A stretch of 43,597 bases of DNA from Conidiobolus incongruus B7586. Lineage: Eukaryota. Positions 1-40,656 of this stretch are shown here, one piece after another (position 1 is the stretch's first letter; each line of letters starts with the position of its first letter). The stretch spans positions 1 to 43,597 of the forward strand of contig JNEM01013603.1 of the NCBI GenBank assembly GCA_000697335.1. The letters run 5' to 3'. The position numbers and the translations under genes are program-made. The notes beneath the pieces are model-generated. The model ran no database searches. It was not told where the DNA came from and saw only the letters and a list, made by a program, of their open reading frames with translations.

Positions 1-1011
1 AATATTTTATAATAAATATAATTATATAATTAAAATAATTAAATGAATTTTGAAATAATATTAAAACTATTAACTATAAGCTATTCTATTTAAATTTAAT
101 ATAAAACTTATTATTAATTATTTTTCCATTAATAATTGAATTAAAGTTTAATATTACTATAAAATTAGAAAATTAGGAAATTTTTTAATTTTTGATTTTT
201 TAAACATATTATTAGTTAAAAATAAAAATATATATATAAAACAAATAGGAAAATAAATAGTTTTGAATTATATATATATATATATATTAATTTTTTTGAT
301 TAAAAAATTTATTTTTTAAAATTAGTTGTTTAATTTAATTATAATTAAACAAAATAATAACCATTAAAAGTTTTTTATTTTAATATTAGTAAAACTTAAC
401 CACAAATCCTCTAAAATTATTTAAAATTTATAAGCAACTTTTGGTAATAAAGTATTATTTAAATCAATAATTTATTATTAGATAAATTATATTAAAACTA
501 AAAGAAAAATTATTTAAAACTTGTTAAAATTTAAAAGATTAATTTCAACTATTATTTTTCTAATTATTAATAAAGTGAATAATTATATTAAAAAACATCT
601 ATTTATTTTAGCTAAAAAATTATCAAGACATTTTAATATTAATTACATAAGTATTTTATATATATTAAAGTTTAAATTAAAATTAATAAATAAAAATATA
701 AAATAGGTACCATATAATTTAACTAAAGCTTAAAAAAATTAGAGTAGCTATTGTTAAATAAAATTTACTAAGGTATAACTAGAAACTAAAGCTTTTACAT
801 CAAATTATAATAATTAATAAATCTTAAATTATTTTGTATAATCTTTTTTTAAAATATAAATGAAATTGTTAGATTAAATTAAATCAACTTTTTTTATAAA
901 TTCCTTTAAATAAATAGTATATTGATAAGTGAATGTTAATTGTTATAATAGATTATAATAGCATATGCTATTTTTATTTAGTTCTTAAAGGAAAATCAAT
1001 TAATAATAAAC

Positions 1012-1360
1012 TATATTATCCTAGTGCTAGAAACTAGGATAATTGTATTGAATTAAGTTAGAGTGTGGATAAGTTATAGGATTAGGATATAGTTATATAG
1101 AGTTTTATTGGAAGTTCTTGACAAAGACTTAGAGTTAGTTTCCTTCAGATAGATAGATAGATAGATAGTTGGATAGATGGATGAGTGAATAGATAGATAA
1201 CTGGATAAATAAATAGATAGATAGATCCCTGTTGTATTTCCCCTTTTTGATATTAGGATAAGAATAGATCAATTTAAGGGAAAGTAGAATAAGAGATAAA
1301 TTATAGGTAAACTGATATTAAAGGTAAATATATATGGACTAATTGGGTAGATACATAACA
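1012..1360. mobile_element. Solo LTR (second family) inserted in mariner copy 1
   Basis: 349-bp block absent from mariner copy 2. Flanked by 5-bp direct repeat TAAAC (1007-1011, 1361-1365). Ends TA..CA (TG..CA with G>A). Confidence 0.75.
1148..1225 (+). repeat. Imperfect (GATA)n microsatellite inside the solo LTR
   Basis: gatagatagatagatagata...gatagatagatagat with ggat/gaat variants. Confidence 0.85.
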
Positions 1361-1819
1361 TAAACTTTACACTTTTTTTTTAAATAAAACTATTTCTAAT
1401 TGGTATTTTTAATATAATTTAAGAAGATTTATTATTCTGTATAATAATTGCAAAATATATTAATTTAAAGTTATAAAAAACTTTCTAATTAAAAATAACT
1501 GGAAAAAACTACTATATCTAGTATATTCTTTAGATTATAACCTATGTAATTATAATTGTTTTAGGTAATTAAAAAACTAGCTTATAGGAAAGAAAATTTC
1601 TACAAAAAAATTTAATTGGTTTATAAAACATCAAATTTCAATCTTTAATAAAAAACTATTTTTTAAATATTATATATTTACTAATAATATAGCAAAAAGT
1701 TATTAGAAATAAAAGAAATTATTAAATCTATTTTATATATTTATTTTTATTTTTTATATATTATAATATTTATTTTTATTAATTATAAAAAATTCCCATT
1801 ATTTAAATTATAAAGTAAT

Positions 1820-2219
1820 TGTTAAAAGATTAATTCTTTAAATTCTTATATATACTTTCATATAATCCAATTAACTATAAATTATATGATTAATTTATAC
1901 TTATATAGTTAAATTAATTGTATAAATAGTATTAAATCATCTAATAAACAAGGTTCCTCTTTTTTCCTCTCAATTCTTACTATTTTTTACTTTTACACTA
2001 TTTCTAAAATTGAGACTATATTCTATTGATATTATAGGATATTGGTACTACCTAATATAAATCTTAATATATTGGTGACTCATCTTAGTTTGAAGCTTAA
2101 TTAAACTTTGTTTACACTTGCATGCTACAGCCACATTATATTACTATATTCTACACCACACTACTTTTATATTAAGTTTTCCTCTACACTATATTAGTTT
2201 AACTACTACTATATTTATA
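1820..2219 (+). repeat. 5' LTR
   Basis: Starts TGTTAA, ends ...TTATA (CA>TA). Aligns gap-free with 7138-7537. Confidence 0.95.
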
Positions 2220-2230
2220 TGGTAGCAACA
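2220..2230 (+). other. Primer-binding site, probably initiator tRNA-Met
   Basis: TGGTAGC directly after the 5' LTR is complementary to the ...GCUACCA 3' end of eukaryotic tRNAiMet. Confidence 0.65.
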
Positions 2231-2345
2231 ATAAAACTATTAAAAACCTACTAGAAATTAATAATTATCTGTATCAAACCTAATTATTACTATTTTAAAT
2301 TTTATTTATAATTTATTTCATTTAAATTTAATACTATACACTATA

Positions 2346-5300
2346 ATACCACTAAAAAAAGAGATATCTTTATATTATTTTAATAATGATAACAGCTTAA
2401 TTACTGAGTGAATCTAAGACTTTAGTCTCTAAAAGCTTACTACCCTCTAAGAAGCTTATATTAGACAACTTTGGATTGAAAAAAATATGTCTCAAAAAGC
2501 TTAAATCTAATAAACCAGCTACTTCACTATAGTTAATATATTAAACCACCTCTTTAGTGTTTTTAAAGACAAATTAACTACTTATGATAGTTTAAAAAAC
2601 CTTTACAAGCTTGAAAACTACTTTAAAAACATGAAGAATTACTTTAATTTGATTCTTGATGAAGATCTAGAGAATATCCTTAAATTAGCTACTTCTTTTT
2701 TAGAAAAATCTACTTTTACTTGGTAGTTAACTTATTACAAGCTTAATCCTAAAGAATCTTCAAGAGGATAACTTACTACAAAAATATAAACTTTTAAACA
2801 ATTAGAAAAAGCTTTTAAAGAGAGGTATTACCTAAAAGATTAAATTTGATTAACAAGAGAAAAGCTTTCCTAGCTTAAATAAAAAACTTCTACAAGATAA
2901 TTAATTGAGAAATTTAATGAGATATACTTAAATATATTAAATATCACTGAAGAAGAATAAATCTACAAACTATTATAATACTTTAACTTTTAAGTGAAGC
3001 TTTAATTAGTTAGTAGGGAATACTTTGATAATATATCTTTTTCTAACATTTGTGATGCAGCAATTATAATTGATGATATTTTTTACTTTATAACTAAATT
3101 TTCCCACCTTAAAAATTAATCTTTTAAACCTTACTCTAACCTACTTAAGTTTTAAATGATAAATGTTTCTACTTTAAAGCTTTATGAGAAAACCTTTAGT
3201 GAAGAAGTTAAAGCCTACTTGAGAACAAACAAAGGTTGTTATTACTGCTAAAAAACTTAAGTTAACTATAAAGCTAATAAATACCCTTTAAAGAAGCAAT
3301 ATCTGTTTAATTCTCAATAATCCCAACCTACCAACCATAAATCAAACCTGAATAATATTAATATAACCCTAGAATTACCCTTTTTATAATTAGTTAGTAA
3401 ATTTTAATTTAATCCACAAAAGTTCTAATAAACCAATGATTCCACAAATTAAACTATGTATACTAGAGAAATCTAACTGATTAAACCACTAGAAACTAGA
3501 AATATTCTAGTAACTAATCTACCTTATAATTCTTTACCTTTAACTATCACCCTATTGTTTATATTAACTAGTTCTTTTATAAATATACTTGTTAGTGTTT
3601 TAATTAACTCTGGTTGTTTTAATTATATTATCTCTTCTTTTATTGTTGTAAAGCTATCTTTACCTACTTAAAAAAGTAACTTGATAATTAAATATGCTAA
3701 CAACTTAATAGAATAAATATTTGGTACTGTATTTAAATACCTATTATTATTTCTTAACTATTCCCAATATATTAAATTCTTAGTTGGCAACATTAGTTAT
3801 AATTTTATACTAGGTTAAAATTAGTTTGAATATCATAGTTTTATATCTATAGATATTACCCTAAAAAGTTACAAATCTATTTCTTTCACATTCTAAAAGA
3901 AATTAGTGGAATTAATCTTAAAAAATCTATATTACCCTACTATAAAATTATTAAATACTTTACCTAACACTAACTCTACAATTGTAGCAAATAATTCTAT
4001 TATTATAAGTAAAAATCAATGTAAAAAGCTAATCAAAAACCTAAATAATTTATAGGGATATATATTTGTTTATTATTTATCTATCAACATTTCATCTGTT
4101 GATTTTAATAAAGTTATATCTAATAACCACTTCCTATACAATACAATAAGTTAATTTGCTAATGTTTTTGAACCTATAAATAAATTACCACTTAAATATA
4201 ATATTGAACACAAAATTAAATTAATCCCTGGTATACAATTATACTTAAAACTTACCTACCATTTATCTCTTGAACAATATCAAACCTTAAAAGAAGAAAT
4301 CTAAAAACTACTTGAAAATAAATACATTAGACCTTTTTCCTCACTATAAAAATCTCTAATCCTCTTTATATAAAAGGTTGATGGTGGTTAGAGATTATAT
4401 ATTGATAACTGTGTTTTAAACTCTAAAACTATCAAGGATAAAACCCTATTACTAAACCTATATAATGTTAAGGATAAACTACTTAGATCAACTATATTTA
4501 TTAAACTAGATGTTAAGAATAAATATTACAACATTAGAGTTGAAGAAAACTTTATCCTTTTAATTGTTTTCAACACTCTTTTAAGCTACTATAAATTTAC
4601 TATCATAAACTTTAGATTGTGTAATGCCCCTATAATTTTCACTTAATTTATCAATTCCCTTTTCAACCTTGTTTTTAATAACTTTATTATCACCTACCTT
4701 AATAATATCTTAATCTATTCAAAAACTAAAGAAGAATATATTTAACATGTTAATTAAATTTTACAAATTATCCAAAAATATAAATTACCTTTAAAACTAT
4801 TAAAATACATCTTTAGTGCCTCTTCTATCTTTTTCTATAGTTATATTGTTTCCTCTTAAAGAATTAGTATTGATCTAACTAAACTCAATAGTGTTAAAGC
4901 TTTTACTATACTTATAAACAAAAATTAACTTATGTTTATACTTAGATTATTGAATTACTTTAAAGATTTTATTGATTTTTTTGTTGAACTTATTACTCTT
5001 CTTACTAATCTCTTAAAGAAAGACTCTCTTTTTAAATAAACCCCACTATATACTTTTTGTATAAATGCTTTGATTTTCTATATTACCAATGCTTTTGCTT
5101 TATTTATCTTCAATTTAAAACTACCTACTATTATTTTTACTAACTCTAATTCTTTTATAATTAGTGGATAATTAACTTAGTTTGAATTTAATTTATATTT
5201 TACCCTATAACTATAGGATAAAATAATAAATAAGGGAGAACAAGTTGAGTTTAACCCTACAAATGTTATTTTAAAACTAATAACATTCTAGTTAAGAAAA

Positions 5301-7151
5301 ATAAAACCAGCTGAATTGAAATACCTAGTTGATAAACAAAAACTTTTTGCTTTAGTAGAAATAATCAAAAATCACTTATATTTCTTATCCTACAACTTTT
5401 TCTTAATACTTACAGATTATAAATTACTTATCTACTTAAATACTTAGAAGCATTTATTAAGAAAATAAGTTAGATAGATTAAAACTATCCAAGCTTATTT
5501 TTTCTTTATTTAATATCTTTTAGGTTAATAAAACTATGCTGTAGATACTTTGTTAAGAAATCTTACATACTTACCCTTTTGTTCTAATTGTAAAAATCCA
5601 GCAAATATTAACTCAATGATTATTAATGAAGGAAATAAAGAATTTATTAAACTACTTTAAGAAACACTATTAAATAATAATTTCTTTATTTCAGTTAAAG
5701 AAGAACTCTTTAAACTATTAGAAAACTAACTAAAATATGTCAAAAGATTTAAAATTATCAATAACTTACTATATTATAATGATTGTCTATATAATCCTAA
5801 TATCCCCAAGATCTAACAAATAATATTTGATGAATGCTATAACTTACTTGTTAGAGAACATTAAAACTAGTTAAAAACTGTTGAGAGAATTAAAACAAAG
5901 TATTACTAGCTTTCCCTAGTTAAATCAATTTAGAAATACACTAATACTTGTAATATATACTAAAAAACTAAATATAATTCTCAACTAAAATATAATAAAC
6001 TTATTCCCTTACAAGTCCCTAATGAAATTTAACAACAAATCCAACTTGATTTCATAGAAATCTTTAAATCAACAAATGGTTATAATAACTTACTAATTGT
6101 AATTGATTTATTTTCCAAATATGTTTATTTTATTCCTTGTTTCAAAACTTCTACAGCTAAAGATATTATATAATAGTTATTCTTTAATATCTTTAACTAC
6201 TATAAAATTCTACAAACTATTATATTTGATAAAGATATACAATTCAACTCTTAATTTTAAAAGTTACTATCTTTTTCCTTTAAGATTAACCTAACTATAT
6301 CTACTACTAATCATTATTAAACCAATAAACTTGTTGAAAAAACTATTAAAACCTTAAAGTAAATAATTAAAGCCTATATTAACACTAATCAGTTAAATTA
6401 AAATACCTATATCTACCAACTCTAATATTTATTCAACATTTTTATCAATAAATCAACAGGTTTTAACCCTTATTTCATCAATTATAATAAACATCCTAAC
6501 TTAATAATTACTCTAAAACTTCAAATCAACTTACCTTTAAACATTGTTGAATTTTAATCTAATATCAAACATATCAATTCTCTTGTTAAATTTAACTTAG
6601 AAGAAAATTAAAGGATTATAGAACAATAATACTTAAAGTTATCTAGAAACCCTTTTAAATATAAAACTAGTATGTTTATATACTTAGAATAATCTACCCT
6701 TAAACCTACCTTATTTAAATCTAGCTTAAATCCCAAATACTTACTATTATATTATAGTCCCTATAAAATTTAATCTATTAATTCAAATTTTGAAAATATT
6801 ACCTTAGAATTACCTCTAACCTTGAGGATCAACCCTACCTTTTACATATCTAAAATTAAACCATACTTTAAAGATTTTAACACTTTTCTTAATTAATTAA
6901 AAACCCCAAAACTAGATCTAATTATTAATTAAGATGGAGAAGAAAAATACTATGTTGATTATATAATTAAGTCTAAATCTATTAGGAATAAGTTTTATTT
7001 TTATATAAAATAGATGGGTTATCCTATTAAAAAAGCTACATAAGAACCTCTAGAAAATATTAAGAATATTTTAGCTTATTATACCTATTTGTAAAAAATT
7101 AAGGAATGTGTCTTCTCTAAAAAACCTACTAGGGGAGTATTAAGAGACTAG
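2346..7151 (+). pseudogene. gag-pol polyprotein pseudogene (single frame, many nonsense codons)
   Basis: All motifs lie in one frame: start-like ata cca cta aaa (MPPK, ~2346), gag 'REKLS*LK*' (~2856), Zn knuckle 'GCYYC*KT*VNYKANKYP' (~3234), protease 'LINSG' (=LIDSG, 3600-3614), RT 'G*RLYIDN', 'FRLCNAP', 'YLNN' (=YLDD, 4695-4706), RNase H 'LTDYKLL', 'VDTLLR', integrase 'TC..Y*K', 'I*QQIQLDF', 'SPYKI', chromodomain 'YYVDYII...YIK*MGYP...AT*EPLEN' (~6948-7060). Confidence 0.92.
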
Positions 7152-7537
7152 TTCTTTAAATTCTTATATATACTTTCATATAATCCAATTAACTATAAAT
7201 TATATGATTAATTTATACTTATATAATTAAATTAATTGTATAAATAGTATTAAATCATCTAATAAATGAGGTTCCTCTTTTTTCCTCTTAATTCTTACTA
7301 TTTCTTACTTTTACATTATTTCTAAAATTAAGACTATATTCTGTTAATATTGTAGGATATTGGCACTACCTAATATAAATCTTAATATATCAGTGACTCA
7401 TCCTAGTTTGAAGCTTAATTAAACTTTGTTTACACTTGCACACTACAGCCACATTATATTACCACATTCTACACCACACTACTTTTATATTAAGTCTTCC
7501 TCTGCACTATATTAGTTTAACTACCACTACACTTACA
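7138..7537 (+). repeat. 3' LTR
   Basis: Starts TATTAA (TG>TA) right after the PPT, ends CTTACA, followed by TSD GTAAT. Confidence 0.95.
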
Positions 7538-9543
7538 GTAATATATATTAATATATTAATATATTAATTAATGTTTACTTATAATTTAATATATATTAAA
7601 TTATAATTAATAAATATGATTATATCATTTTAATTTTGAAATTTAATATATTTTAATCATAGAATTATATAATATGATTTAAAAATCTTTAATTAATTAA
7701 AATTATTTTAAATTCTTTAATATTTAATTACAATTTAGTAAGCTTTTTTTTATTATAGATTTTTTAGCTTATTTTATTTTTAGTTAATAATAACAAGTTT
7801 ATTATATATTTTTATTGATTAATATAGGCTTTATTTTATTTATTAGATATTATTTTTTAGATAATATCGATAAACTATTATAATAATATATTTAAAATAT
7901 AATGATATTTTAATATATTAAATAATATATTAATTTATAAAAATTAAAAATAAAACTTATATTTTTATGTTAAAAAAATATTTATTAGTTTTTCTTTTAG
8001 TTTTGAAAAATTTATTTAGCAATAGATAATCAATATTAATAAAACATTATTTTTATAAATCATTAATAAAATTTAAATAATTTCAAAAATTATATTGCTA
8101 AGTTTTACTAATATTAAAATAACAAATTTTTGTTAACTATTATTTAATCTAAATATGATTAATTTTAATAATATATTTTTAAAAGTTAATTTCTTAATAA
8201 AAAACTTATATTATATATATTTAGTTTAAAGCTATAAATTTTTATATTCATTTTGAATTTATTTGTTTCTTTGAAAATTCAAAAATTAAGAAATTTCAAA
8301 TTTTTGCAATTCCTAGGTAATAATAAAATTAAAATATACTTAAAATGGAGCTTTGATAATTTATAGTTTTCTCAATTATATTATACTATTATAACTCAGG
8401 TTTATATAATTTTAGTAATGAATATAATAAATTACTAAATTAACAAATAAAAGCCTTATAATATAATCTAGATTTTGGAAATATATATATTTGTTGCTAA
8501 AAAATTATTATTATTATTATTTGCAAAAATATTCTATAATTAGATATTATAAATCAAATTTCATAAAAAACATCAAAGAATTATAACAATATATGAGAAA
8601 ACAATTTATTATTAAAAAAATATCATTTTTTTCAAGGAACTAAAGAATCCAATAGATAGTTTCGCATAATATTATAAATATTTATTAAGGTTTTAAAGTA
8701 TTAAAGTATTAAAATTAAAAATTAAATCATTTCAAAATAATGTATTTAAAATTTGAAAAATTAATTTCAGATTTTTCTATGTACTGTTTTTTGAAACGTT
8801 TGCATCAAATATTGAATAATCGGTTTATATTAAGCAAATGATCAAATATAAATATAATGACTAACAACTCATATTTTCTAAACAGACTATTCCATTATCA
8901 ACAATACCTAATCTATAATCATTAAATTTAATTTAAATTTTTAAAGAATTATAAAAACTTGAATATTTTTTGTTGAAAATACAAATAATTAGGACTTGGC
9001 GTTCTTAAGTTCAAATTCAGAAAAATCCAATTCTAAAATTGTTAATAATATCCAATTTTTTCAAAAGTTTATATAATCTGTTTAGAATTATATTTTTCTT
9101 TAAAATTTATATTAATAAGAGAATTTTACAAGTATTTCAGTCATAATAATTTCAATTATCAATGGAGAAATTTACTAAGAATAGTTGATTGCAATAAAGA
9201 GCACGTCAAATATTTTTAGCCATATTTTTATATATTTATTATGATATTGGATAAAAAATTGAAGGTTATATAATATCAAGAGTTGAAATTAAAAATAAGT
9301 AGCAAATTATCATTGTTCAAATAGAATTGAATTTAGCTGGAACGCGATATTATTAAAAATACTATATACTTAATACAATTGACTCTATTGTGGATATTTT
9401 GTTTTAGAATTTGTTTTTCCAAGTCAAAAATAAATATGAATTCGGTCAAATTACTCAATTTAAGACAAATTGATTCATTGCAACTAAAATTAGAATTCAA
9501 TTTCATTTAGATTAATCCCAAATTGAGAGAGAATTTGGTCGAG

Positions 9544-9601: not shown

Positions 9602-11304
9602 ATGACAACTGATATTATTTTAATAAATCAACAAATCTCTAACATTCATTGTACGCTATGTAGAAAGAAAAAATTAAAATGTGACAGGAAGTTACCCCAG
9701 TGTGGCAGGTGCGTTATGAATAATATTCAATGTGAATATGTTAAAAAGAGTAGATTTTATAAATTTCAATTTAAAATTGAAAATCCTAAAGATTTAAAAG
9801 CTTACCATAATCAAGGTAGTCCTATAATCATATATTAAAGATCAGTTTTAAATGATATTATATTCATTTAGTCTGTTATCAACTTACAAAATCCTTATCT
9901 TTTTCAAATAAGAGTTGGAGCGACAGTAACGATACGTTACTGTCACCTTTACATAGGGCAACTTCAGTGGATGAAATTATTAGATTCGCATTTAACTACC
10001 CATATACCAATTATTACCAGATCGGAAATAATCTAAGTACTGACCAATATCTTAATCGCAAAATCCAATACAGTTTGGACAAGTATCCCATCGAAGTAAT
10101 TGGTAAAGATAATAGCAAACAATTTATTATTTATTCACTCTCACCAACCGCTCGCCCACTCTATTTATTGACCCAGAAGACTTTTTGGAATGAGTTGATT
10201 GAGTTATATGTACAAAATTTTCACCTTATGTTTCCCGTATTTAGTTTAAGATACTTTGACCCAGATACCGCTCCAAATCATCTTTTAGCTGCTATTTATT
10301 TAGCAGGATATTTGTATCGCGCAGAACGACCAATATGTGTGACCGATTACTTGGAAAAGTATACAGAGATTGCTACCAAGCGATGTGCCTATCATCCAAG
10401 TATATCGTCACTTCAAACGCTCTATATTATGGCGCAATATAGTCACTTTACTAATAATACTAGCAAACGTCGCATGTACCAGAGTTGTCTTACGCGATTG
10501 GCATATACTCTGGGACTTCATCATCCTTTAAAGAATAATAATCCATTACTACGTTATGAAGCAGATCTTATATGGAGTAGAATCACTCTACTTAACCTCA
10601 ATTTCTCAGGTGTATCGTTCGAACCTAATTATATTGTGAATTACCCCAGGTTTTTAACCGGCCTGAACCCCAGTTATCAATTACCGCACCCCAACTACAA
10701 TTTCGATCCCCAGAATGTGACAATTTCGGATGTAATCGCATTGTGCATTACGTACAACGTCATGTCTATTGACATCATCCTCCAGTACTATTGGGATAAT
10801 ATCAGGACTGCGAATCATGTCGAACGCATTTCGCACAAGTTGGAAACTAGGTGCGACAAGGGAGATGTGGAATTCCTCAGAGCGTGTCAATTTTACGACG
10901 ATTTGATCGAAAAGCACCCTAACTACAAGGATTCCATACTGACTTTCAAGACCAAGCTCAGTATTTACTGCAGCATTATGGACATTCACTACTTTAACGC
11001 AGATCCCGAAGACCCTACCGAAATCAACCGAGAAAAAATCGACAAGTTGATACAAAGCTGTCACGCACTGATCACCATTATGACCAATAATCCAGGATCA
11101 GCGAAACTCTATACTACTGGATTCTTAATAGCAGCTGGATTGGCATATTTAAAAGGACTAAAATTTGCTAATAAGTCACAAACCAATTTAATTTTAGCAG
11201 ATTTAGATTTTTTAATTGACTGGATTTTAAAGTATGGGGATGATTCTGCGAAATTGCCCTTGGTGATTTTGAAGTATGGGAGGAAAGATTGGCTAATGCA
11301 TTGA
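9602..11304 (+). CDS. Zn(II)2Cys6 fungal transcription factor, 2 exons: join(9602..9815,9872..11304), ~548 aa
   Basis: CTLCRKKKLKCDRKLPQCGRCVMNNIQC binuclear cluster. A 56-nt GT..AG intron joins ORF 9602 in frame to ORF 9967. Fungal_trans-like region 'ELIELYVQNFHLMFPVFS'. Confidence 0.92.
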
Positions 11305-11495
11305 TTGCATCTGTAATATTAATAAATCATAATTTAATATTTGATTATTATTTATTTGGAACAATTATATTATAAATAATAAATTAAGTTATAAAATACA
11401 GTGAATAAGAAACTTGAAATCATTACGAATGACGTAATGCCAGTCACACCAACAATGGAGAGTACATCGCTCTTGGACACATTGGATGAAGTAGG

Positions 11496-11933
11496 TTATG
11501 ATGAGGATCTTGCACCTGCACTGCTAGCCATTGTCTCACCGGGTTTACACAGCATATTTCCCATTGTTGATGCAGCATCTTTACTTCCGGATCCTCCAGC
11601 AGTTCCTGTAACACATAGTGCACCTCCATTGCTACTTTCACCTGAGCCTGGAGCACCTTCAGAGGCATCTGCTGTACCGTCACTACCACTAGCACCAGAT
11701 GCCCCTCCTGCACCACCAGCACTAGGGGTGCCTCCTGTACCAGCATCAGCAGTGCCAGGAGCAACACCGGTAGAACCGCCATCAACACCCGGAGCGTCTG
11801 AAGTACCATCGAGAGGGCCACCATCAAAACCAGGAATGCCGCTTGATGTACCGTTGACACCATTTGTATTCTGAGAACTTGTGAAACTAAGAGACAAAAT
11901 AGCAGTTAAAGTAATCGAATTAAGCAATTTCAT
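11496..11933 (-). CDS. Secreted Gly/Ala/Ser-rich protein, 145 aa; paralog of 13220-13852 whose GPI-type tail (11370-11495) lies behind an in-frame TAA (truncated gene or young pseudogene)
   Basis: Signal peptide MKLLNSITLTAILSLSFTSSQ. After the TAA the frame continues PTSSNVSKSDVLSIVGVTGITSFVMISSFLFTVFYN, homologous to the paralog's C-terminus. Confidence 0.8.
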   Translation of the reverse strand: MKLLNSITLTAILSLSFTSSQNTNGVNGTSSGIPGFDGGPLDGTSDAPGVDGGSTGVAPGTADAGTGGTPSAGGAGGASGASGSDGTADASEGAPGSGESSNGGALCVTGTAGGSGSKDAASTMGNMLCKPGETMASSAGARSSS

Positions 11934-25610: not shown

Positions 25611-27494
25611 ATGTTTGATATTCATTCTTTAATTATAACGGATTCACCTAAAATAGCTCGAAATGAAAAGAGTCATGATTTATCTAAACAAAATAAGAGC
25701 CATATAAGTTGCATTCCCTGCAGGCAAAAAAGACAGAAATGCGATAGAACTTTACCTCAGTGCAATCGTTGCCAAAGATCAATATACAATTGTGAATATC
25801 GCACTAGGAAGCCGCTTAAATTTAAGCATCTATCGATCGGACCAGAGTCAAAAACTATTACTTATCAGGCTTCGAAAAATAAGAAAAATCTATGGATAGT
25901 AGAGAATTTGGATCTTATCAAACCTACACAGAATATGTCACTGGATGACACAACCACTAAAATCAAATCAAAGACGAAAAAGCAGCAGGAACGCTTTAGT
26001 GAATATGAGCCATCTAAACCTAATGATGTACTCACCATTCACAAGGGTAAATTGGCTATTGTGACTAAATCTCATGCACCCATATTACTTTCAACCATTC
26101 TGTCCTACTTTAAATTATCCGGTAAATTCGTATTCACTACACGGGAGGATTTAATTCGATATCTTTTGTTTTTCCCACTTGTGGATTATTCCCAATTTTA
26201 TTACGACGTTATAACCCAGTTGTCATCAAATCCCGCGGTTACCAAACTCTTCCATCCTGGCCCAATTCAAGGTCTGCCGTCACCGTGTAAATCACCAACA
26301 GTAAAATCCATTAACAAGACATTTAATTCCAAGCTAGATATTGTTCCAGATCCGGCATTTTGGGATGAATTAACTAAAGAGTATTTCCATCATTTTCATG
26401 CTACAACACCGCTTTTCAGTTTGCGCACCTTTGATAATACCAAACTTCCAAGTTATCTCCTTTTCACAATCCAGTGGGCAGGATTCACACTATCTTCAGT
26501 GCACTATGATTCAGTAATCGCACTCAGCATCAACGAGTATATGGAGAGTCAGTTAATTAAGTACCGAAATCATTGCAAACTTTCAGTTCTACAAATGATG
26601 ATCATTTATTATTCTATCAAATTTAGTCAAAGTTGCAGTGTTAAAAATCGGGCATATTTGGGGCATATCACCCGTTTAAGCTGGACTTTGGGTTTACACT
26701 TCAATAAGCCTAAATTAAGAAATGAAGATTTGGAATATGAATGTAAGATGGCTTATCTTTTTGTAGTGAATTTAAATATGATGCATAGTGGAAGGGTATA
26801 TCGTATGAATTTTGTGACGGCTGAGCCTATTCCAATACCCTTTTGTAATCCCAAATTCCAAAGGAGTCCAGATTCACTTGATGATGATATAAGAGATATT
26901 GTGAAAGCTTGGAGCGTTAGCATTGCCACGTCATTTACCTATGATATCTGCTCTAAGGGCTGGGATCTCAAAATTGTATTTCCTAATATCAAGGACAATT
27001 CCATTGATATCAAACGGGAGCAAGATTTGATCCAATCCCAGTTAGCCAGAGTGAAGACGCAATATGAATATTTGATCCGATGCTATCCAGATCATAAAGA
27101 TATTCCTCAGCCCTTTATTCTCTTGTGCACTTTTTATTCTCAATCCATTATGCTCTACAATCACTGTAATCCTTTGACAGGACTTTCGCAGTTAAGCCAT
27201 GAACAAATGGAGTTTTCGGTAAACAACTGTGATAAAATGCTGAATATAGTAGACGAAATGTTCATCAAGGGATCCAATGGCTGGAGTCGATGCTATAAAA
27301 TTATTGGAATGTTCTGCCTAAAGTTACTGCCTTACCTTGATGAAAAGCTCAGACCAGCAGGCTTTCAAATGATGAATGATATTTTGAATAATCTTAAAGA
27401 TGCATCAAATCTAACAAATCCTTTAGCTCCTTTACCTTTCGAAATCAGATTGCTGGATGAGGGTTTTAACTGGATTAAACAAAATTGTTTATAA
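25611..27494 (+). CDS. Zn(II)2Cys6 fungal transcription factor, ~627 aa (first ATG 25611; an upstream exon is not excluded)
   Basis: CIPCRQKRQKCDRTLPQCNRCQRSIYNC cluster. 'FWDELTKEYFHHFHATTPLFS' and 'ITRLSWTLGLH' parallel the 9602 paralog. Confidence 0.93.
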   Translation: MFDIHSLIITDSPKIARNEKSHDLSKQNKSHISCIPCRQKRQKCDRTLPQCNRCQRSIYNCEYRTRKPLKFKHLSIGPESKTITYQASKNKKNLWIVENLDLIKPTQNMSLDDTTTKIKSKTKKQQERFSEYEPSKPNDVLTIHKGKLAIVTKSHAPILLSTILSYFKLSGKFVFTTREDLIRYLLFFPLVDYSQFYYDVITQLSSNPAVTKLFHPGPIQGLPSPCKSPTVKSINKTFNSKLDIVPDPAFWDELTKEYFHHFHATTPLFSLRTFDNTKLPSYLLFTIQWAGFTLSSVHYDSVIALSINEYMESQLIKYRNHCKLSVLQMMIIYYSIKFSQSCSVKNRAYLGHITRLSWTLGLHFNKPKLRNEDLEYECKMAYLFVVNLNMMHSGRVYRMNFVTAEPIPIPFCNPKFQRSPDSLDDDIRDIVKAWSVSIATSFTYDICSKGWDLKIVFPNIKDNSIDIKREQDLIQSQLARVKTQYEYLIRCYPDHKDIPQPFILLCTFYSQSIMLYNHCNPLTGLSQLSHEQMEFSVNNCDKMLNIVDEMFIKGSNGWSRCYKIIGMFCLKLLPYLDEKLRPAGFQMMNDILNNLKDASNLTNPLAPLPFEIRLLDEGFNWIKQNCL

Positions 27495-30099
27495 TTATTT
27501 GCTAATAAATATATTTTAATTCACTTTAAAATTAATATTATTAAAATTCTCAAACGCGTTAACTGATAATTGGTATATTACTATTAGCTAATTACAATTA
27601 ATGAAGGTAATATTTTTGAATAAATTTAAATGAATTACAAAATATAACTATTGAATTATAATTTCTTTTCTCTAAGTTTCTTATAATCCTAATTTTTACA
27701 ATCCCATTAACTATATTTTTAAATTTATTTTTATCATGTGCATAATTTAGTCCGATAGTACTTGATTTTTAATTGTTATTATTTTTCAATATATTCAATT
27801 TTATATTCTAATAAATGGATGAATCATATGGTATATCCATTATATTTCCTAAATAAATTTGATTAAAATGTTTAGGTGGCAAAATAAAACCTTTATGGAA
27901 TATTATTATTTTCATAATCTGATGTATTTACATACATTATCTAAAAATAAAACAAAATGATATCAAAATAAAGGAGAATACCTTCTTATCACAAAACGAT
28001 GATGTTTCGATATTATAAGAGTACATTTAAATATATTTGACTAATAAATTAATATCTTTTCAATCATTCAAAGAATTGACATAGTAATTCTGAGCTATTC
28101 CAAGTTAAATCCGGTTATATATTATCATATTTATAAAAAAAACATACCAATACCTCTTTATTAAATATCGCAAAATTAAAATTTTACTAATAAAACTGAT
28201 ATAATTTGTTGAATTGCTTATTAAAAATATCAACAAAAATTACTATCAAATTTACTTCAAATGTAAATAATTTGGTCGATTATAAATTTACATCAAGTTA
28301 ACATGTAAAACTAATTGCATCCAAGTGACTTTTTGTTATACTAAATTATTATGAAAATCTAAAAATTCATATTTAACTTTATAAATACTACAACCTTTCT
28401 TACATGATTTATTTTTAACAATTCCTAAATGTTTTTATAAAAAATTTAGTTGACTAATATATTTTATATATAATACTGATCAATCTCATAAATGGAGAAT
28501 GATACAGATTATTATTGCTATTGTTTATTTACATTCTACAATATATATTATTTTAATTTTCAATACCTTAGGATAATATTACTATTCTATTTTGGCTTTG
28601 CAATTAGATTTATAGTAAATTAAATTATAGAATACTATAATACATTTATTTCAATTATATATTCATTCAAATATAATGTTATAATCATGATTTTATCAAA
28701 ATATATAGATCTTCAGAGGTTGTTATAATTATAAATAATCTTTATTTTGATGTATTAAATACCACAACTTCTCTATCAATAAATATTACTTCCTTTAAAC
28801 CTTGTTTGGAAAGTATGTATAAACACCTTATAAAGATACACAAATCAAATTAATATATAAATATCGAAAACTAGAAAATAATAAATAACGGAATTTATAT
28901 TTTTTGTTTGATATTTTAAGTCATCTATCAATTTTTAAAATTAGAACTGTAGTAAAATCATACTACTTGTAAATGGATTTATAAGAACTTATGATGGATA
29001 TATAAATATAATTAATCTCCCAGTCAAATATTATCAATTTCAAAAAAGGGTATTGAAATCAAATTCTATTCAAATATCCCCAATTTAACTCTGAAATGGT
29101 CACATTATATATTTGAGTCAATAATATATATTTATTGGCTTATTCAAAATTTGAACTATCAAGATTATTCTGTAATATGATCAAATTATATTTAAAAAAA
29201 TGAACTTTATCACAATACAATTTCATAATATTTCATTTTTATATCAATAGTTAAAAACTTTTAAAATCTATATACTTTTATATTAATTAACATTATAATA
29301 TTTCATTAAATATATTATTAATAGTTTATTAAAAATTATATTATTCCATATTATTCGATTTTGAATAGATTCTATTTATCGTTATTAGTAAGGTTGATCA
29401 TATTTTATCAATAATAGTTTCAATTATTGTATACATTTAAAAGTCAATAATTAACCACATTATGTTTGATTATGTTTATGTATATACAAAATACAAAATA
29501 TAAAATTAACTAAATCATTATTAATTGATGTTATTATCTTTTGAAAGTAGAAAATAATATATAAAGTAAAATTAATGGAATAAATCGGTATTGTTCTTGC
29601 TATTTATAATTATTATTAAAAACTAATATGAATGATTGTTAAAATAGTGATTTTTGGGATTTTCAAAATAGAATAAATTCTATTTCCATATCAAACAAAT
29701 GTAATATAAATATAAAGTGGATCATTATATATAATAACTGTTATCCTGATTACTTAATTTAAAATAGTAACATTAATCTAAGTTTTTATCGAGCTTTTCC
29801 AAAAGTAAATTGTATTTGTAAAAATTTGACTCCTTTTTGCACAATATTTCTTAATCATTCGAATTTTGCTTCCTAATTAGTCAGAATTTTATTACCGATT
29901 TTAATTTTAATATGATTATAATCTTTATTAAATTAATATATAAATTATAAATATATAACTAACAGCTTGATATAAAATATAAAAAATATCTTTAACTAAT
30001 CTTTAAACATCATTTATTTCCATAGTTTTTTTCCTATTTGTAATTAATTTTTTACATTTTCAAATGTTATAACTCTGAAATAAATTTTTTACATGTCAG

Positions 30100-30312
30100 A
30101 ACTTTATCGAATTTCCATATACCACAGTGATCTAATTCAACTTCAATTATTATTTAATTCACTTCCCAGAAAACTTCGTTCGAGAGTCGGGGTCCCGAAT
30201 CATAAATAAAATATGGTATTTTCTCATTCCTGAAATTTATTGCTCATCCTCGCTATAAGGCTTGGAGCTTCAAATTTCATCAAAAACAATGATTTTATTT
30301 TTTTGCAGCTTA
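30100..30312 (+). pseudogene. Possible trypsin-like (S1) serine-protease relic
   Basis: Across frameshifts: 'EFPY', 'VR..GSR', 'KFIAHPRY', 'NDFIFLQL', resembling the HPxY...NDIALLKL segment. Locally GC/CpG-rich. Confidence 0.3.
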
Positions 30313-30465
30313 TATTTTACCATAAAATAAAAACGGCAATTTAAAAATAGTTTTTAAACTCTCAAAGATTTTTGATTTTATTACTTAAAAAATATGGTTA
30401 AAGTTATGAATGATTTACAAATAAGATTAATTTTAACTAATTCTATTCCAAATAGATTACTTGAT

Positions 30466-31443
30466 TTATTCATAAAATATTTGATGAATTCTTCTTAATT
30501 TGTTAATTATCCTTATTTTAAAAGGAATTGATTGGTTGAATTGAATAAGGGAGGAATTGGTTGTTAAATCACTAATGTCTTCTTTTAGAAACGGTTTTTC
30601 ATCGTTAACAGATTCTTTGAATGATGAGGAAATTGAGGGGTTACCATGAGCAATACAATATAGTAAACCTTCTTTCAATTGGAATTTGCTCTTAATTTGA
30701 ATATTACATACAGTACAAGTTAAACATTGTAAATGAAATGTTCTTTTGGAATTTCCTCGACCTATTCTAATACCGTCTTTATAATTGTCTATATTCTTTT
30801 TGCACTTAGCGCACTTTAATTCGGTGGCTTCTTTAGATGGTTCTTGACAATAATTCAAGGTAGAGTCTGTGGATGGTTGCGATCGGTGGGATTTTTTATG
30901 AGGGGAATGGGTGGATGATATTTGGGGATAAAATTTAGCAAAGTTTTTATAGTCTTCAATACAATAAACATTATTTTCTAGCAATTTGTAATCACATGAG
31001 TCATATAACGATTTTCCACATTTGGCACATTTCAAATGTCCTGGATGCCAGCAGAGGTTGGATAGTTGTATGACACTATCTTTGATGGGGAGGTGGCAAT
31101 GGTAACAGACAGGATATGAAGACGAGTTACTGGTTTGGCTAGTGCAGTTGGCAGTGTTTGTAGCATTATCATCTAGTTTGCTCGGATCGATATGGCTATG
31201 AAAATCAGATTCAATCGATTTGTAATATTTAGTTATCGAGTTGATTTCTTCAAGCACTTCATCTAAGAATCCTTCGATAATAGAGCTTCTAGTATGTATG
31301 CTTAATACATCAGTGGGATCAAATACTCCAGAGTCTTTATGTATTTTATCCACTTGAGATGAGTCAAGAAGTTTTCGATTAATGTCTGACGATTTTTCAA
31401 ACTCAGATTTTAGCGGTAAGCAAGAATGTAATACAGTTATCAT
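30466..31443 (-). CDS. Two-LIM-domain (paxillin-like) zinc-finger protein, ~325 aa; may have an upstream exon
   Basis: LIM1 CYHC...WHPGHLKCAKC...YCIEDY. LIM2 CAKC...FHLQCLTCTVC...YCIAH. Acceptor-like TTTGCTAG one base before the ATG. Confidence 0.88.
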   Translation of the reverse strand: MITVLHSCLPLKSEFEKSSDINRKLLDSSQVDKIHKDSGVFDPTDVLSIHTRSSIIEGFLDEVLEEINSITKYYKSIESDFHSHIDPSKLDDNATNTANCTSQTSNSSSYPVCYHCHLPIKDSVIQLSNLCWHPGHLKCAKCGKSLYDSCDYKLLENNVYCIEDYKNFAKFYPQISSTHSPHKKSHRSQPSTDSTLNYCQEPSKEATELKCAKCKKNIDNYKDGIRIGRGNSKRTFHLQCLTCTVCNIQIKSKFQLKEGLLYCIAHGNPSISSSFKESVNDEKPFLKEDISDLTTNSSLIQFNQSIPFKIRIINKLRRIHQIFYE

Positions 31444-32585
31444 CCTAGCAAAATATCAAACTCAATTTTCATATAGAATTAACCCTTATATATTCCAACT
31501 CAAACACGGATTATTATCCCTTTTTAATATAAATAATTAACTAATTTAGGAAATTGATAATTATTTTATTTTTCGTTTTCTCCTCAAATAAATGATTCAA
31601 TTTCAGTTAATTCATTTAAAAGAATTGATGTCAAGTATAGTTAAGATAGCGTACATCAATTAGTTCTTTACCATATGAAGGATAGATGCTTGTTATAACT
31701 GAAAATCATTTAATACAATTTAATCAGTTTTTTCTTAAATATAAAGTAATTACAATCTAGGTTTACTATATCATTTGAGTATAGCAAATTCAATCAATTC
31801 TTTGTTATTGCAATCAAAACATGATTAAATCATAGGTTTATTTGTATTGTCACAAATTTCAATTACCATAAAAATAATAAAAAATTTCAAATAACTAAAC
31901 ATGAAAATTCAGGGTTTTATAATGATCATATTCAAAGTAGTATAAAATATTGGTACAAATATCACTAACATTTAGTTAATTAATGACGTTGAAATACTTT
32001 GATTCAATAAACAATTATCAGTGGCAAATATATACATGAAAATTTGTATAAGTTAATCTAAACATTATTCTTTTAACAAATAAACTTTCACATTATTTGT
32101 AAAATCGAAATTATAATAAAGAAAATTCAACAGTCTAAATTAAAATTTATCAAGTCCATTTTATTTCAAACAAAGATTTTCCTATATTAAAATGATCCAG
32201 ATTATTATTTAATTAGTATTTTAAATGTTGTATACATATTACTCTAAACTTGTTGATATTAGAATACCAATTAATAGTATACTATAATATAATAATAAAA
32301 CATTATATGGTTTACAATGATAAATATGATTAATTTGAGATTTTAATCAAGAATTTCATGATTTGATTATCTATGTAAATTTTGATAATTAACTAAATAT
32401 GTATATATAATTAAATTTCAATATATAACATTATAAATTTAAAAATAATATATAAATATTTTGAGATTGATTATAAACACTGATGTTAATTTATGAATTC
32501 ATATTATTAACAATAATTTTTTAGATAGCTAGCTTCAATATACAATGTCCTTAATGTATTTTGATAAAATAATATTAATATACAT

Positions 32586-32883
32586 GTTGTAAAATTCTGT
32601 TGTTTACATTTCCATAGGTTTCAGAATGGTTTGAAATGTTATTGGGATTAGCATCGTTGGAAGTCATTTTTTTCAGATTCAAGTCGTCAAGAATTAATTA
32701 GGATATGCTTACAATAAAGTACAGAGCTCAGAGATGATTATTACCACAAAAAATTTACATGTATTGATAATATAGAAAATGCAACTAAAAATATTAGTTG
32801 CAGTCATCAAAGCATTATCTGTTAACATGCACATGCCTGATTTTATGACTCATATATACAACAATACATATTTCAATCTATAA
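32586..32883. repeat. Diverged ~300-bp direct repeat, copy A (partner 39769-40077)
   Basis: Shared blocks tgttgtaaaa, gtttaca, tccata(g/a)gtttcag, attgggattag, gaagtcat, atcaaagcat, ttaacatg(c/a)acatgc, actcata. Confidence 0.75.
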
Positions 32884-34522
32884 TTGGTATTTTTTATCAT
32901 AATTTATCAATTGTTATATCAAGAAATTATGCTATATGGAGTATTCTAATAATCTAGGTACCAGTTAATTAATCTAGAAAATATCTTATATTTTGATAGC
33001 AACAATTATATTGATGAAATATATATTATAGGTTTGAAATAAATATCATATTAAACTTTATTATATATTCAGAATTACTAATATATCATTAATGAATATA
33101 GCATGATTTATTTTTCTATCAATCAAACTGATTAGAGACATCCACTTATTAATGGAATAGATTTTTACTTATAAAAAGTTCATTAGAATATAAAATCTGT
33201 ATTGTAATATTTTTTTAATGTATCTGAAATCCATGAATAATTGAATGAAACCAATATAATTAAAAAAATTCGTTGTATATTAATACAATAATGTATAATA
33301 CAAATCCAAATACCCATATTTCAATATTTGATAGTATTATTTTTTATGATTTAACTTTAGATATTAATTTGATAAATTTTTGAAATTTTCAAGTCATTTT
33401 TAGTTTAAATTCTCAAATATCTAATGAATTTTGAATCATATTTAAAAATGTTATAGTTATTAATATTCAGATTTTTATTCAAACGATTAGTTGATTAAAA
33501 AAATTGATATTAAAAATAAAATCAAAGTTCAATAAAAATATAATCAAGTAAAAAATTTTGTTACGATGATATATTAATAACAATAGACTAATTTGATTAA
33601 ATTTATTTTTAAATTAATTTTCATTATATCAATTTAAGAAGTGTTTCCACCTAAATATATATAGGTATATAATGGCAATTGGGCAAATTTTAACGATTGA
33701 TTGAAAGTAGGTGATACATTTAATAATATCAATGTGCGAAAACAAATATATTATTTTCCAAATTGTTTAAATATACTGAACTGAATAATATTTTAAAATA
33801 TTATTAGTATACTCCGAGATATATTATAAAATTAATTCACAACGCAACTTGATAAATTACTGATTTTCACTAAATTATATCTTTTCAAAATTCTTAAATC
33901 CCGAGATTGATAGTTAACATATTGATCAGAAAATTAGACCACCTTACAACAATTTTCACATATGTCATATGAATAAAACATATTAGAAAGAGCAAAGAGG
34001 ATTTTACAAATCATAAAATTATAAACTATTCAAGTTAATGCTTCATCATAATATAAATTTGTGAGTTGTAAATTCTTCAATAGTATATTCCACTTATTAT
34101 CTTAGTTACAAAAATTAATTTGAAATATTTCTTTCAAATTTTAATAACCATTAAACCAGTCTCAGAAATAAACAGCTGTAGATTCAAATTAATATTTTAA
34201 ATGTATAAACTGCATCCATTTTTGTAAATAGGTAATTTCCAAATAGTTTTGTAATAATTCATAATAGTCATTAAATATTTTGTTATATTAGGTTTACTAT
34301 TTGATTGAGAAAATATCAATACACATGATAAGTATGTATTATTATATGTAATTGAATAAAATGTAGAGTGTATTCAAATAAATTCTTTCAAAAACGATAA
34401 TATTTAGACATTATAGATGATCATTATATAAAAATTAATTAATATTCAAGATAAAAATGATAATTAGAAGATATTTATTAAATATCTTGAAATTCTAACA
34501 TTGGTTAAATAAATAAATAATT

Positions 34523-36394
34523 TTAACATTCAACGGGCTTCTTGAAACCATCAATATGCTTGCTATTTTCTAATTTGGCGTCAATACCCAAACCTCTCTT
34601 AGCGAAACCTCTCCACAATTCACACTTGAAGTTTCCACCAGTCAAGTGCTTTTCAGCTAAGATGATGGCATCACGAGCTTGAATGAAGGTAGGGTTACAG
34701 GGTTGCAACTTCATACCATCGATGAGGAGACGAGCCAAAAGGGTGTTGCCGTGAGTGTAGTCACCAGACAAAAGATCGTTAGTGAAGGAAGTGCGATCGC
34801 GCAAATTCCAGTAGACTTCGTAAAGGATTTCGGCCCAGACAGCGCCGACAGGGTGAACACCTCGGAAGTCGGGACCATCAATGCTCGAGTATTTCTCAGG
34901 GTTGACATCGAAGCTGGTGGAATAGGGGTAGTGGCGGATAGTCTTGCCATTGTAAACGTAACTACCCATCAATAAGTTGGTGCTGCGGTTGTAGGATTCC
35001 TTTTGACGGATCAGGTTGGCAAAAGTATCAGACCAACCTTCACCCATACCTCCGGCTTCCCAGGTTTGGAGACAGTTGGAGTTGGAAGGACCACCAGTCA
35101 ATCTGTTGGAGACACCATGAGTGTATTCGTGAATGATGATGCCGTTATCGAAGTCGCCATCACGTTCGGGAGAGTTTCTGTTCCAAGTGTACATTCTCAT
35201 ACGGGGTTGGTAACCATCAGGAGGAGTGGCAAAGTTGGCATTATTCTTACCAGCACCATCTTGAGCTTGAGCACGGACAGGGTCACCGCCGAGACCACCC
35301 TTACCAAAGTTGTTTTGTTGGAAGTTACCAGCAACTTCGTTAAAACCGTGAGCATAAAGGTAATCGTGATACCAGTTGTTGACATAGAACAAATTGGTAA
35401 GAGCAGCATTGATATATTCACCAGGTTGCTTCGAGAAATCGACAGGGAAGTCGAATTTCAAATCTTTACCACCTTCAGCTCTGGGTTGTTCGGTCCAGGG
35501 TCTGGTAAGATTGCGGTTATCTAAAGCAATGACGTTGTTACCGGTGGTAGTGGTGAAGGTCTTACCATCACCTTGATCGTGCCAACCTAAGGGAGAGGCG
35601 AGCTTGGTACCTTGAGTAGTAACAATTTTACGGGGACCTTCTTCAGGATCATTGGTAGGGGGAACATAAACATTGTAGGTGGCTTCATGAACCCAGTCGT
35701 AAAGGGCAACAACTTGCTTAGTGTTGGCATCAACGTAAGCGGAGAACCAGTTGTCTTCCAATTCAACTTGAACGTTCCAGGTCAAAGCAATTTCGTTGTT
35801 CTTTTGAATGTAGGATTGGGATGCAGTAATGCCATTCTTAGCAGCAGGAACATTATTGATCTTGACAGGTTCATCAACGCTACGAGGTTCAATGACAACA
35901 ATCTTATCCTTGGGAACGCCTAAATCCAATTTAATGTGGCTGAATAAAGTTTCAACTGCATCAACGACATTTCCAGCGTTTTCTTCAGCAAAGCTGGCAG
36001 ATCTACCAAGGTTGGCAGGAGTGAAGGAGTTACCATAAGAGATAACATTGCCATTCTTATCAACGTTGATATTGATATCACCGTTGGCAACTTCTTTACC
36101 ATTAATGATTTGCTTGAGGTAAGTGTGAGTGATACCATTGGCAGATGTGTAGGAATCCTTGACAATGTAGTCTTGACCATCAAAATAGTTCAATTCCTTA
36201 GCAACAAATTGCTTGGCAATTTCCAAAGCAGGGAGGTTATTGTCGGCTCTACGGGCAAGAGAGCCATGCTCAACGACCTTGTAAGTAGCATGGCTTAACT
36301 GAGGAACAATTCTGTCAACATTTATTCTCTCAGCAGAAGCATGGCCTGAGAGACAGAGGGAGATAATTACAGATGCTAAAGTATTGAACTTCAT
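34523..36394 (-). CDS. MEP: Fungalysin (M36) extracellular zinc metalloprotease precursor, ~623 aa, intronless
   Basis: Signal peptide MKFNTLASVIISLCLSGHASA. FTP/PepSY propeptide ('GITHTYLKQIINGKEVANGDININV'). 'GFNEVAGNFQQNN', HEYTH, 'GGMGEGWSD', 'HPVGAVWA', 'KLQPCNPTFIQARDAI', 'WRGFAKRGLG'. Confidence 0.97.
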   Translation of the reverse strand: MKFNTLASVIISLCLSGHASAERINVDRIVPQLSHATYKVVEHGSLARRADNNLPALEIAKQFVAKELNYFDGQDYIVKDSYTSANGITHTYLKQIINGKEVANGDININVDKNGNVISYGNSFTPANLGRSASFAEENAGNVVDAVETLFSHIKLDLGVPKDKIVVIEPRSVDEPVKINNVPAAKNGITASQSYIQKNNEIALTWNVQVELEDNWFSAYVDANTKQVVALYDWVHEATYNVYVPPTNDPEEGPRKIVTTQGTKLASPLGWHDQGDGKTFTTTTGNNVIALDNRNLTRPWTEQPRAEGGKDLKFDFPVDFSKQPGEYINAALTNLFYVNNWYHDYLYAHGFNEVAGNFQQNNFGKGGLGGDPVRAQAQDGAGKNNANFATPPDGYQPRMRMYTWNRNSPERDGDFDNGIIIHEYTHGVSNRLTGGPSNSNCLQTWEAGGMGEGWSDTFANLIRQKESYNRSTNLLMGSYVYNGKTIRHYPYSTSFDVNPEKYSSIDGPDFRGVHPVGAVWAEILYEVYWNLRDRTSFTNDLLSGDYTHGNTLLARLLIDGMKLQPCNPTFIQARDAIILAEKHLTGGNFKCELWRGFAKRGLGIDAKLENSKHIDGFKKPVEC

Positions 36395-36476
36395 AATGGA
36401 TAATAAATAATGAGATATTAAATTATTATACAAATAGTTAGTAGTTATATAATTTGCAGCCTGATGCTCAAGATAC

Positions 36477-36484
36477 TTTATATA
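36477..36484 (-). promoter_or_regulatory. Putative TATA box of the fungalysin gene
   Basis: TATATAAA on the minus strand ~85 nt upstream of the ATG. Confidence 0.3.
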
Positions 36485-40077: not shown

Positions 40078-40656
40078 TATATTATTAGATCATATTATAA
40101 ATAAAATATATTACCTAATATAATAATCTGTTGATTATTTAATGTATTAAGGAATATAAAGTATTTATAAACTATCTTGTAAATTAATATTTAATAAGAT
40201 AAAAATCAAAATTTTTATCTATAACTAAGGGATGATTTTGGTGTTAATATATAATCTTTTTTTGAATATATTAGTTCAAAACAAAAAATTGATAAATTTT
40301 TCAATTTTTGACTTTTCAAATATATTGTAATCTTTGAAAAATTAATTATATATAAAAAATATAAAAAATTAATATTTTTTAAACATATATTATTTATAGT
40401 TATTTTTTCTATAAATATTTTTAATTAAAATTTCAAAATTTAATTAAAAATAAATTAAATATTGATTATCAAAAGTTTTTTACTTTGGTATTTTTAAAAC
40501 TCAACTATAGATCTTTTAAAATCTGTAGATAATTTATAAAAATAATTCTGTATTTATAACTATTATTTATTATTATTATTATTATTTACTCTAATAGTTA
40601 AATAGGATATTAATTAATATTTACTTAAATTAGAAATCTAATTAATATTTTTATTA

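Follow-up and report, generated by a model that had tools for sequence, protein, structure and literature searches.

We report that transposon-derived DNA in a 43,597-nucleotide (nt) stretch from Conidiobolus incongruus B7586 (contig JNEM01013603.1; hereafter the window) has undergone C-to-T change on both strands after insertion, in the context order CpG > CpA > CpT > CpC and far above background. The evidence centers on a dead Ty3/Gypsy retrotransposon at 1820-7537, whose two long terminal repeats (LTRs) with their intact target duplication form an internal clock that exposes the process directly. We suggest a model in which transposon DNA is marked by a cytosine methyltransferase of the DNMT1/DIM-2 type, whose activity leads to rapid C-to-T change; methylation, the enzyme, its targeting and repeated rounds are what we infer, and we give this model a probability of roughly 0.55. 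The signature itself is real and well controlled, and it adds a new form to the repeat-directed C-to-T mutagenesis already known, in a group of fungi for which the existence of such mutagenesis is disputed.

Post-insertion changes in the paired LTRs

The element has the TG...CA LTR ends, the 5-bp duplication and the reverse transcriptase (RT)-RNase H-integrase order of Ty3/Gypsy (chromovirus-like) elements. Its parts, and a solo LTR of the same family, are the following.

1815..1819, plus strand: left copy of the target-site duplication, GTAAT (5 bp), matching the right copy
1820..2219, plus strand: 5' LTR, 400 nt, with TG start and TATA as last bases (C>T at 2218)
2220..2230, plus strand: motif starting TGG and abutting the 5' LTR, resembling a primer-binding site
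2223..7136, plus strand: dead Ty3/Gypsy gag-pol in a single frame with 90 stops and no frameshift; gag, RT, RNase H, integrase, chromodomain
7131..7137, plus strand: polypurine tract preceding the 3' LTR
7138..7537, plus strand: 3' LTR, 400 nt, with TA start (G>A at 7139) and CA end
7538..7542, plus strand: right copy of the target-site duplication, GTAAT (5 bp), matching the left copy
42726..43123, plus strand: solo LTR with its own ATATT duplication (42721-42725 and 43124-43128) and 6 CpG kept

The LTRs of a single retrotransposon insertion are identical when inserted and, because the GTAAT duplication flanks both ends, the two LTRs here stem from one insertion. They align without gaps over 400 nt and differ at 28/400 positions, with 16 C/T and 12 G/A mismatches and no transversions, in agreement with the initial annotation of this DNA, which had counted about 28 differences over some 400 bp, none of them a gap or a transversion. 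The absence of transversions (0/28) departs from the spectrum of host DNA (536:303; Fisher p=7e-6). The T/A state is found at 19 of the 28 sites in the 5' LTR and at 9 in the 3' LTR; with 13 C>T and 6 G>A changes in the former and 3 and 6 in the latter, both strands have been affected in each LTR. Ancestral CpGs were, as had also been proposed, resolved reciprocally between the LTRs, namely at 1949, 2073 and 2123. The description "transition-only" is correct for the LTR pair and does not extend to the solo LTR compared with the paired LTRs or to a pair of Tc1-like relics described below, both of which include transversions.

The solo LTR served as outgroup for polarity. At the 28 sites, it carries C/G at 22, T/A at five (three in reconstructed CpGs and two ambiguous) and a third base at one. 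Polarized in this way, the changes per site are 9/13 for CpG, 10/27 for CpA, 8/46 for CpT and 1/19 for CpC, while the LTR pair alone gives 6/6, 13/34, 9/51 and 0/14, respectively; all of these context counts are lower bounds, because sites changed in all three LTR copies are invisible. The earlier statement that many CpA and CpT sites were also altered is thereby supported, and the non-CpG share of the LTR differences is 19/28. Among the non-CpG contexts, CpA was changed more often than CpT and CpC together (10/27 vs 9/65; Fisher p=0.02). Eleven ancestral CpGs were inferred, all of them lost from both paired LTRs and six retained in the solo LTR; they were destroyed whichever base precedes (A, C, G or T). 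Likewise, there is no 5'-base preference (5' LTR: AC 10/41, CC 8/20, GC 11/26, TC 11/39) and, in particular, no T bias. Non-CpG cytosines changed at a rate of at least 0.10 per site; the upper 95% limit on the transversion rate (0 in 800 site-lineages) is at least 28-fold lower. Over 126 C/G sites, the load is 40 and 31 in the paired LTRs and 15 in the solo LTR.

Transposon-derived DNA compared with host DNA

Within this window, the C-to-T process is limited to transposon-derived DNA. Positions 1-7867 contain no CpG and the first one lies at 7868, as had been noted for the stretch up to about 7860. For 1820-7537, ~63 CpGs are expected by base content and 44 at the host intergenic observed/expected (o/e) ratio of ~0.7 (Poisson p ~5e-20). 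CpA is also depleted: its o/e ratio is 0.71 in the element, whereas five stretches of intergenic DNA with comparable GC content have 1.09-1.31, and the (CA+TG):(CT+AG) comparison between element and intergenic DNA gives a Fisher p=8e-37. Because pure CpG decay would raise CpA, this depletion disfavors such decay. The composite index for repeat-induced point mutation (RIP), calculated in 1-kb bins, is positive in 8/8 bins over 1-8000 and negative in 32/32 bins over 8001-40000. General AT drift was considered and rejected, as AT-rich intergenic DNA retains a CpG o/e of 0.54-0.88 and a CpA o/e >1. The control region and the relics of a second repeat family, none of them assigned to a strand, are the following.

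9856..36484: host genes serving as control, encoding fungal transcription factors, a mitochondrial carrier, SAC1, a LIM protein and fungalysin
141..1819: second-family relic, Tc1/mariner-like (weak), CpG-free, left of the insertion, with a 334-nt insert at ~1016-1349
7539..8333: second-family relic, AT-rich, right of the insertion
40268..42416: second-family relic nest, CpG-free, with a DDE_3 match (E=2.4e-4; 21.4 bits, under the 28.6 cut-off)

Five control host genes have CpG o/e ratios of 0.63-0.99 and CpA o/e ratios of 1.06-1.25; the RIP index of the control region is negative, and the genes of the window have open frames. The second-family relics have ~15% GC and CpA o/e ratios of 0.67-0.75, and both copies measured lack CpG. 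Pfam searches with 12 second-family frames yielded two matches, one a weak hit to DDE_3 and the other due to chance; the family is probably a Tc1/mariner-like DNA transposon. The insert in the left relic (1016-1349) is G-rich and contains a GATA microsatellite; the partner copy is without it.

The interior of the retrotransposon has been ruined by substitutions. Its 90 stops (72 TAA, 16 TAG and 2 TGA) lie in one frame with no frameshift over 4.9 kb, Trp accounts for 2 of the 1638 codons, the RT motif reads YLNN (4695-4706), and C exceeds G on the strand shown (696 vs 386). RVT_1, RT_RNaseH and Integrase_H2C2 scored above the Pfam cut-off, and gag, rve and Chromo below it. To compare pol with its relatives, we used 30 single-stretch sequences chosen from 150 listed, and 224 columns that are at least 80% conserved. 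The dead pol differs at 114 of these columns; 80 of the differences are explained by C>T/G>A alone and none by the reverse alone (shuffled null: mean 23.5, maximum 36), and the 11 stops at conserved columns stand opposite Trp (8), Gln (2) and Glu (1). Comparison with 8 distant relatives gave 48/90 C>T/G>A-only differences (reverse 1, null mean 18.5) and with the closest listed relative alone 179/574 (reverse 21, null mean 99). In protein searches with the dead pol, the word-based method returned 8 matches at 21-25% identity and the full HMMER search a relative at 35%. Scanning an intact relative's pol against DNA gave 23 pattern matches with no true relative among them, and metagenome contigs scanned for an LTR motif gave 0 matches.

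Other copies of the family were compared as contigs from sequencing runs of one sample, X1 and X2 being two of the four DNA runs with the window. Runs X5 and X7 contain almost none of it. Over 2230-7545, the changed places comprise 1563 transitions vs 60 transversions in X2 and 1517 vs 52 in X1. Among the X2 copies, T is seen at 621/763 C and A at 350/411 G. At 592 further sites, this element has T/A and other family copies have C/G, so that up to a third of its C/G may have been lost (GC 22% now and at most 33% earlier). The summed family depth in X2 (13,000-34,000 vs 8-10.5 for single-copy contigs), which is not a copy number, points to a family of hundreds of copies or more.

Host DNA behaves differently in these runs, with 536 transitions vs 303 transversions, and 561:335, over 19600-39500. 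Host gene sequence is present in a second copy, at ~94% identity and equal depth, and the listed differences are bidirectional and include transversions; one second-copy contig has 28 differences per ~500 nt at a depth of 27.3 vs 28.9 for the identical copy. This shows that duplicated host genes are not stripped of C. Host paralogue pairs within the window are 60-68% alike, with transition/transversion ratios of 0.7-2.4, and are too diverged as a fair control.

SAC1, a Zn2Cys6 factor and the LIM gene appear two-copy in the runs (~94% where measurable) and intergenic DNA single (19600-39500); the doubling of host genes suggests an ancient duplication of the genome or a hybrid. The fungalysin (M36) gene at 34523-36484 is intact and belongs to a multi-copy family, and its raised depth points to close paralogues without hypermutation.

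A candidate methyltransferase-driven mutator and its rivals

In the model that we suggest, a DNMT1/DIM-2-type cytosine methyltransferase would methylate transposon DNA both at CpG and outside it. The marked cytosines would then deaminate and stay unrepaired, giving rise to C:G to T:A changes on both strands. Targeting would occur through transposon chromatin and not through pairing of any duplicate, and the changes would accumulate across many, probably mitotic, rounds. Such repeated rounds are suggested by double changes (CG to TA) and by Trp codons that are seen as TAG and TAA and rarely as TGA.

Several observations weigh against this model. The context ranking derives from one LTR pair with 28 events, and CpG is altered most, whereas the Zymoseptoria mutator takes CA and leaves CG. 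Zoopagomycota are described, in a passage of Lax et al. (2024, PMC11258239), as generally poor in 5-methylcytosine (5mC). Between the solo LTR and the paired LTRs there are 42-49 transitions, 10 transversions and 3 gap events (4.2-4.9 transitions per transversion), and within the Tc1-like relic pair 132 transitions and 46 transversions (2.9 per transversion); repeats would, on these comparisons, gather ordinary changes too, in active lineages or with age. Moreover, the solo LTR holds 6 CpG amid CpG-free relics, which fits chromatin targeting only if it is younger; its light load may reflect a younger age or a process that depends on repeat length or linkage. The family-wide ratio of 1563:60 is inflated (in a family of so many copies, changes private to one copy are lost under the 1% threshold, and some differences are uncounted), and transversions make up 7/40 of the family-wide differences listed. 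The one at 7268 arose before insertion, since the corresponding base of the 5' LTR goes back to the same G; the other six are undated. Finally, the host control is not neutral unique DNA, as it includes selected paralogues and short chance matches (64-65% of aligned pieces continue unlike).

The near-exclusive C:G to T:A change in integrated double-stranded DNA, with both LTRs and both strands affected, agrees with RIP of the Pezizomycotina type. The initial annotation had proposed a cytosine mutator acting on repeats; confinement to repeats, action on both strands and the order CpG > CpA > CpT > CpC stand, while an identity with homology-triggered, premeiotic, RID-dependent RIP is not established: the second host-gene copies are ordinary, and near-pure C>T also results from a mitotic mutator of the Dim2 type (PMC8016269, in the passages on its spectrum). 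A RIP equivalent, in which homology-sensed duplicates would be mutated in bursts at the sexual/zygospore stage by a non-RID enzyme or a distant RID relative, is possible, and we consider it with reserve. It shares the mutation class on both strands, CpA leads the non-CpG contexts, and the RIP index is positive over 1-8000 and negative over 8001-40000. Length- or linkage-dependent RIP would yield a heavier load in full-length elements, and the LTRs of the full-length element are indeed mutated more than the 400-nt solo LTR. Windows with a positive index are, in addition, reported in passages of Stajich et al. (2024, PMC11105155) for Z. radicans (24.2%), E. maimaiga, M. cicadina and E. muscae. 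By contrast, CpG ranks above CpA and is saturated, in conflict with the CpA preference of Pezizomycotina RIP; the second host-gene copies and fungalysin paralogues have an ordinary spectrum and open frames, even if unlinked or separate-nucleus copies could escape; and the family attained very high copy depth. Masc1/RID is, moreover, reported only in Dikarya, bar a bacterial-like gene in Batrachochytrium, in the relevant part of Muszewska et al. (2017, PMC5751038). That Zoopagomycota possess a homology-sensing, RIP-equivalent defense with a broad CpG > CpA > CpT target and an enzyme other than RID is doubtful; if true, RIP-type defense would be older than Dikarya or would have evolved at least two times, and kingdom-wide screens would have overlooked it in AT-rich genomes.

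Passive decay, i.e. slow spontaneous deamination of 5mC with dense non-CpG methylation, a very low background and no special mutator, is unlikely. It would explain that CpG is the hottest context and wholly erased and that older repeat pairs hold transversions and gaps, and a CpG excess alone has been so interpreted in Agaricomycotina (Horns et al. 2012, PMC3318451, in its discussion of that group). However, decay of CpGs would be CpG-limited with a gain of TpG/CpA and a proportional background, whereas two-thirds of the post-insertion changes are non-CpG, CpA is low and the LTR pair has 0 transversions or indels in 800 site-lineages despite CpG saturation. Non-CpG cytosines exceed the transversion bound at least 28-fold, and in the human germline fully methylated CpG by itself attains a ratio of roughly 30-fold; also, the dead gene extends over 4.9 kb without a frameshift. 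Far less probable still is that the changes reflect pre-insertion editing of cDNA, by an APOBEC-like deaminase or a biased reverse transcriptase, or an assembly that is a mosaic of numerous copies. The family is of very high copy number, the element is spanned by no run contig and interior C exceeds G, all of which would fit. Yet C>T and G>A changes in each LTR and the opposite CpG outcomes require change on double-stranded DNA after insertion, on which ground we rejected pre-insertion editing; the target duplication is identical on both sides; a transition-only family would be seen even in a mosaic of real copies; and the CpG-free second family, likely a DNA transposon, shares the CpG and CpA loss.

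Host lineage, known systems and neighboring features

As judged by two gene trees, the host is a Conidiobolus-like entomophthoralean outside Dikarya and is not the C. coronatus reference strain, in line with the non-Dikarya host assumed at the outset. In a SAC1 tree of 31 rows (30 chosen from 120 matches, with C. coronatus SAC1 not among the matches), the host sequence falls in a clade with Neoconidiobolus thromboides, Entomophthora muscae and two further sequences (support 100/98), of which it is the first branch under midpoint rooting. Fungalysin has its best match in C. coronatus (61%) and, in a tree using 22 of 120 matches, groups with four C. coronatus genes and two others (Shimodaira-Hasegawa-like approximate likelihood ratio test, SH-aLRT, 100). 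A Pezizomycotina host was rejected because SAC1 and fungalysin group with Entomophthorales.

A close parallel to the model with a DNMT1/DIM-2-type methyltransferase is Zymoseptoria tritici, for which the passages on the mutator in Möller et al. (2021, PMC8016269) describe Dim2-dependent mitotic mutation with >95% C>T in 5mC regions. Shared features are near-pure C>T in repeats (28/28 in the LTR pair and 1563/1623 family places, the latter biased upward), CA depletion and transposon genes ruined by missense and nonsense transitions. In that system, however, CA accounts for >98% of C>T and CG escapes, while here CpG is foremost, with 0/11 inferred CpGs left in either paired LTR, and CpT is clearly altered. 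Also, enzyme and mitotic timing were shown in that ascomycete, whereas at this locus, in a Zoopagomycota host, both are part of the model. RIP in Neurospora crassa and other Pezizomycotina, which involves RID and DIM-2, likewise causes C:G to T:A changes on both strands in repeats, with a positive index, CpA as top non-CpG context and no indels; it differs in that CpG exceeds CpA here and duplicated host genes appear spared. In the transposons of Pucciniomycotina, a TpCpG hypermutation is described in the corresponding part of Horns et al. (2012, PMC3318451). It resembles the present pattern in being repeat-linked C>T that strikes CpG more than any other dinucleotide, but here there is no 5' T preference, non-CpG sites take two-thirds of the changes, and the preference for TpCpG over VpCpG and non-CpG sites is not seen in the LTR counts. 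The context order fits none of Neurospora RIP, the Zymoseptoria Dim2 mutator and the rust TpCpG pattern.

Repeat-directed mutagenesis outside Dikarya is disputed. The passages in question in Stajich et al. (2024, PMC11105155) propose RIP in Entomophthorales from 1-kb composite indices, with "major caveats", and contain no alignment of copies, mutation spectrum or context; they state that entomophthoralean methyltransferases "cannot be interpreted as homologs of RID" and that DNA_methylase genes are present in every entomophthoralean set examined. RID is, in the part of Muszewska et al. (2017, PMC5751038) devoted to it, found only in Dikarya, and the results given in Badet and Croll (2025, PMC12543289) place RIP-like signatures in Ascomycota only, with C. 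coronatus scored "no_rip". In Phycomyces, CG and CHH methylation of transposons occurs alongside DIM2 and DNMT1, as described in one part of Lax et al. (2024, PMC11258239). The novelty first claimed for a repeat mutator outside Dikarya is therefore reduced, given that the same proposal had been made for the same fungal order from indices; what is added is direct, mutation-level evidence in a Conidiobolus-like lineage. In the literature searched by title and start of abstract, subscription papers being outside the search, we found no alignment-level mutation spectrum for entomophthoralean transposons.

In genomes of this kind, dates derived from LTR divergence and RIP screens based on k-mers can be misleading. 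Many Conidiobolus-like fungi are culturable, and the enzyme and timing thus become testable.

Two further features of the window were noted. A 91-nt repeat (32585-32675 and 39769-39859, 78% alike), with raised depth at the first copy, is a small dispersed element. At 11384-11939 and 13219-13924 lie tandem paralogous minus-strand genes for small Gly-rich, probably secreted proteins, with ~60% DNA likeness.

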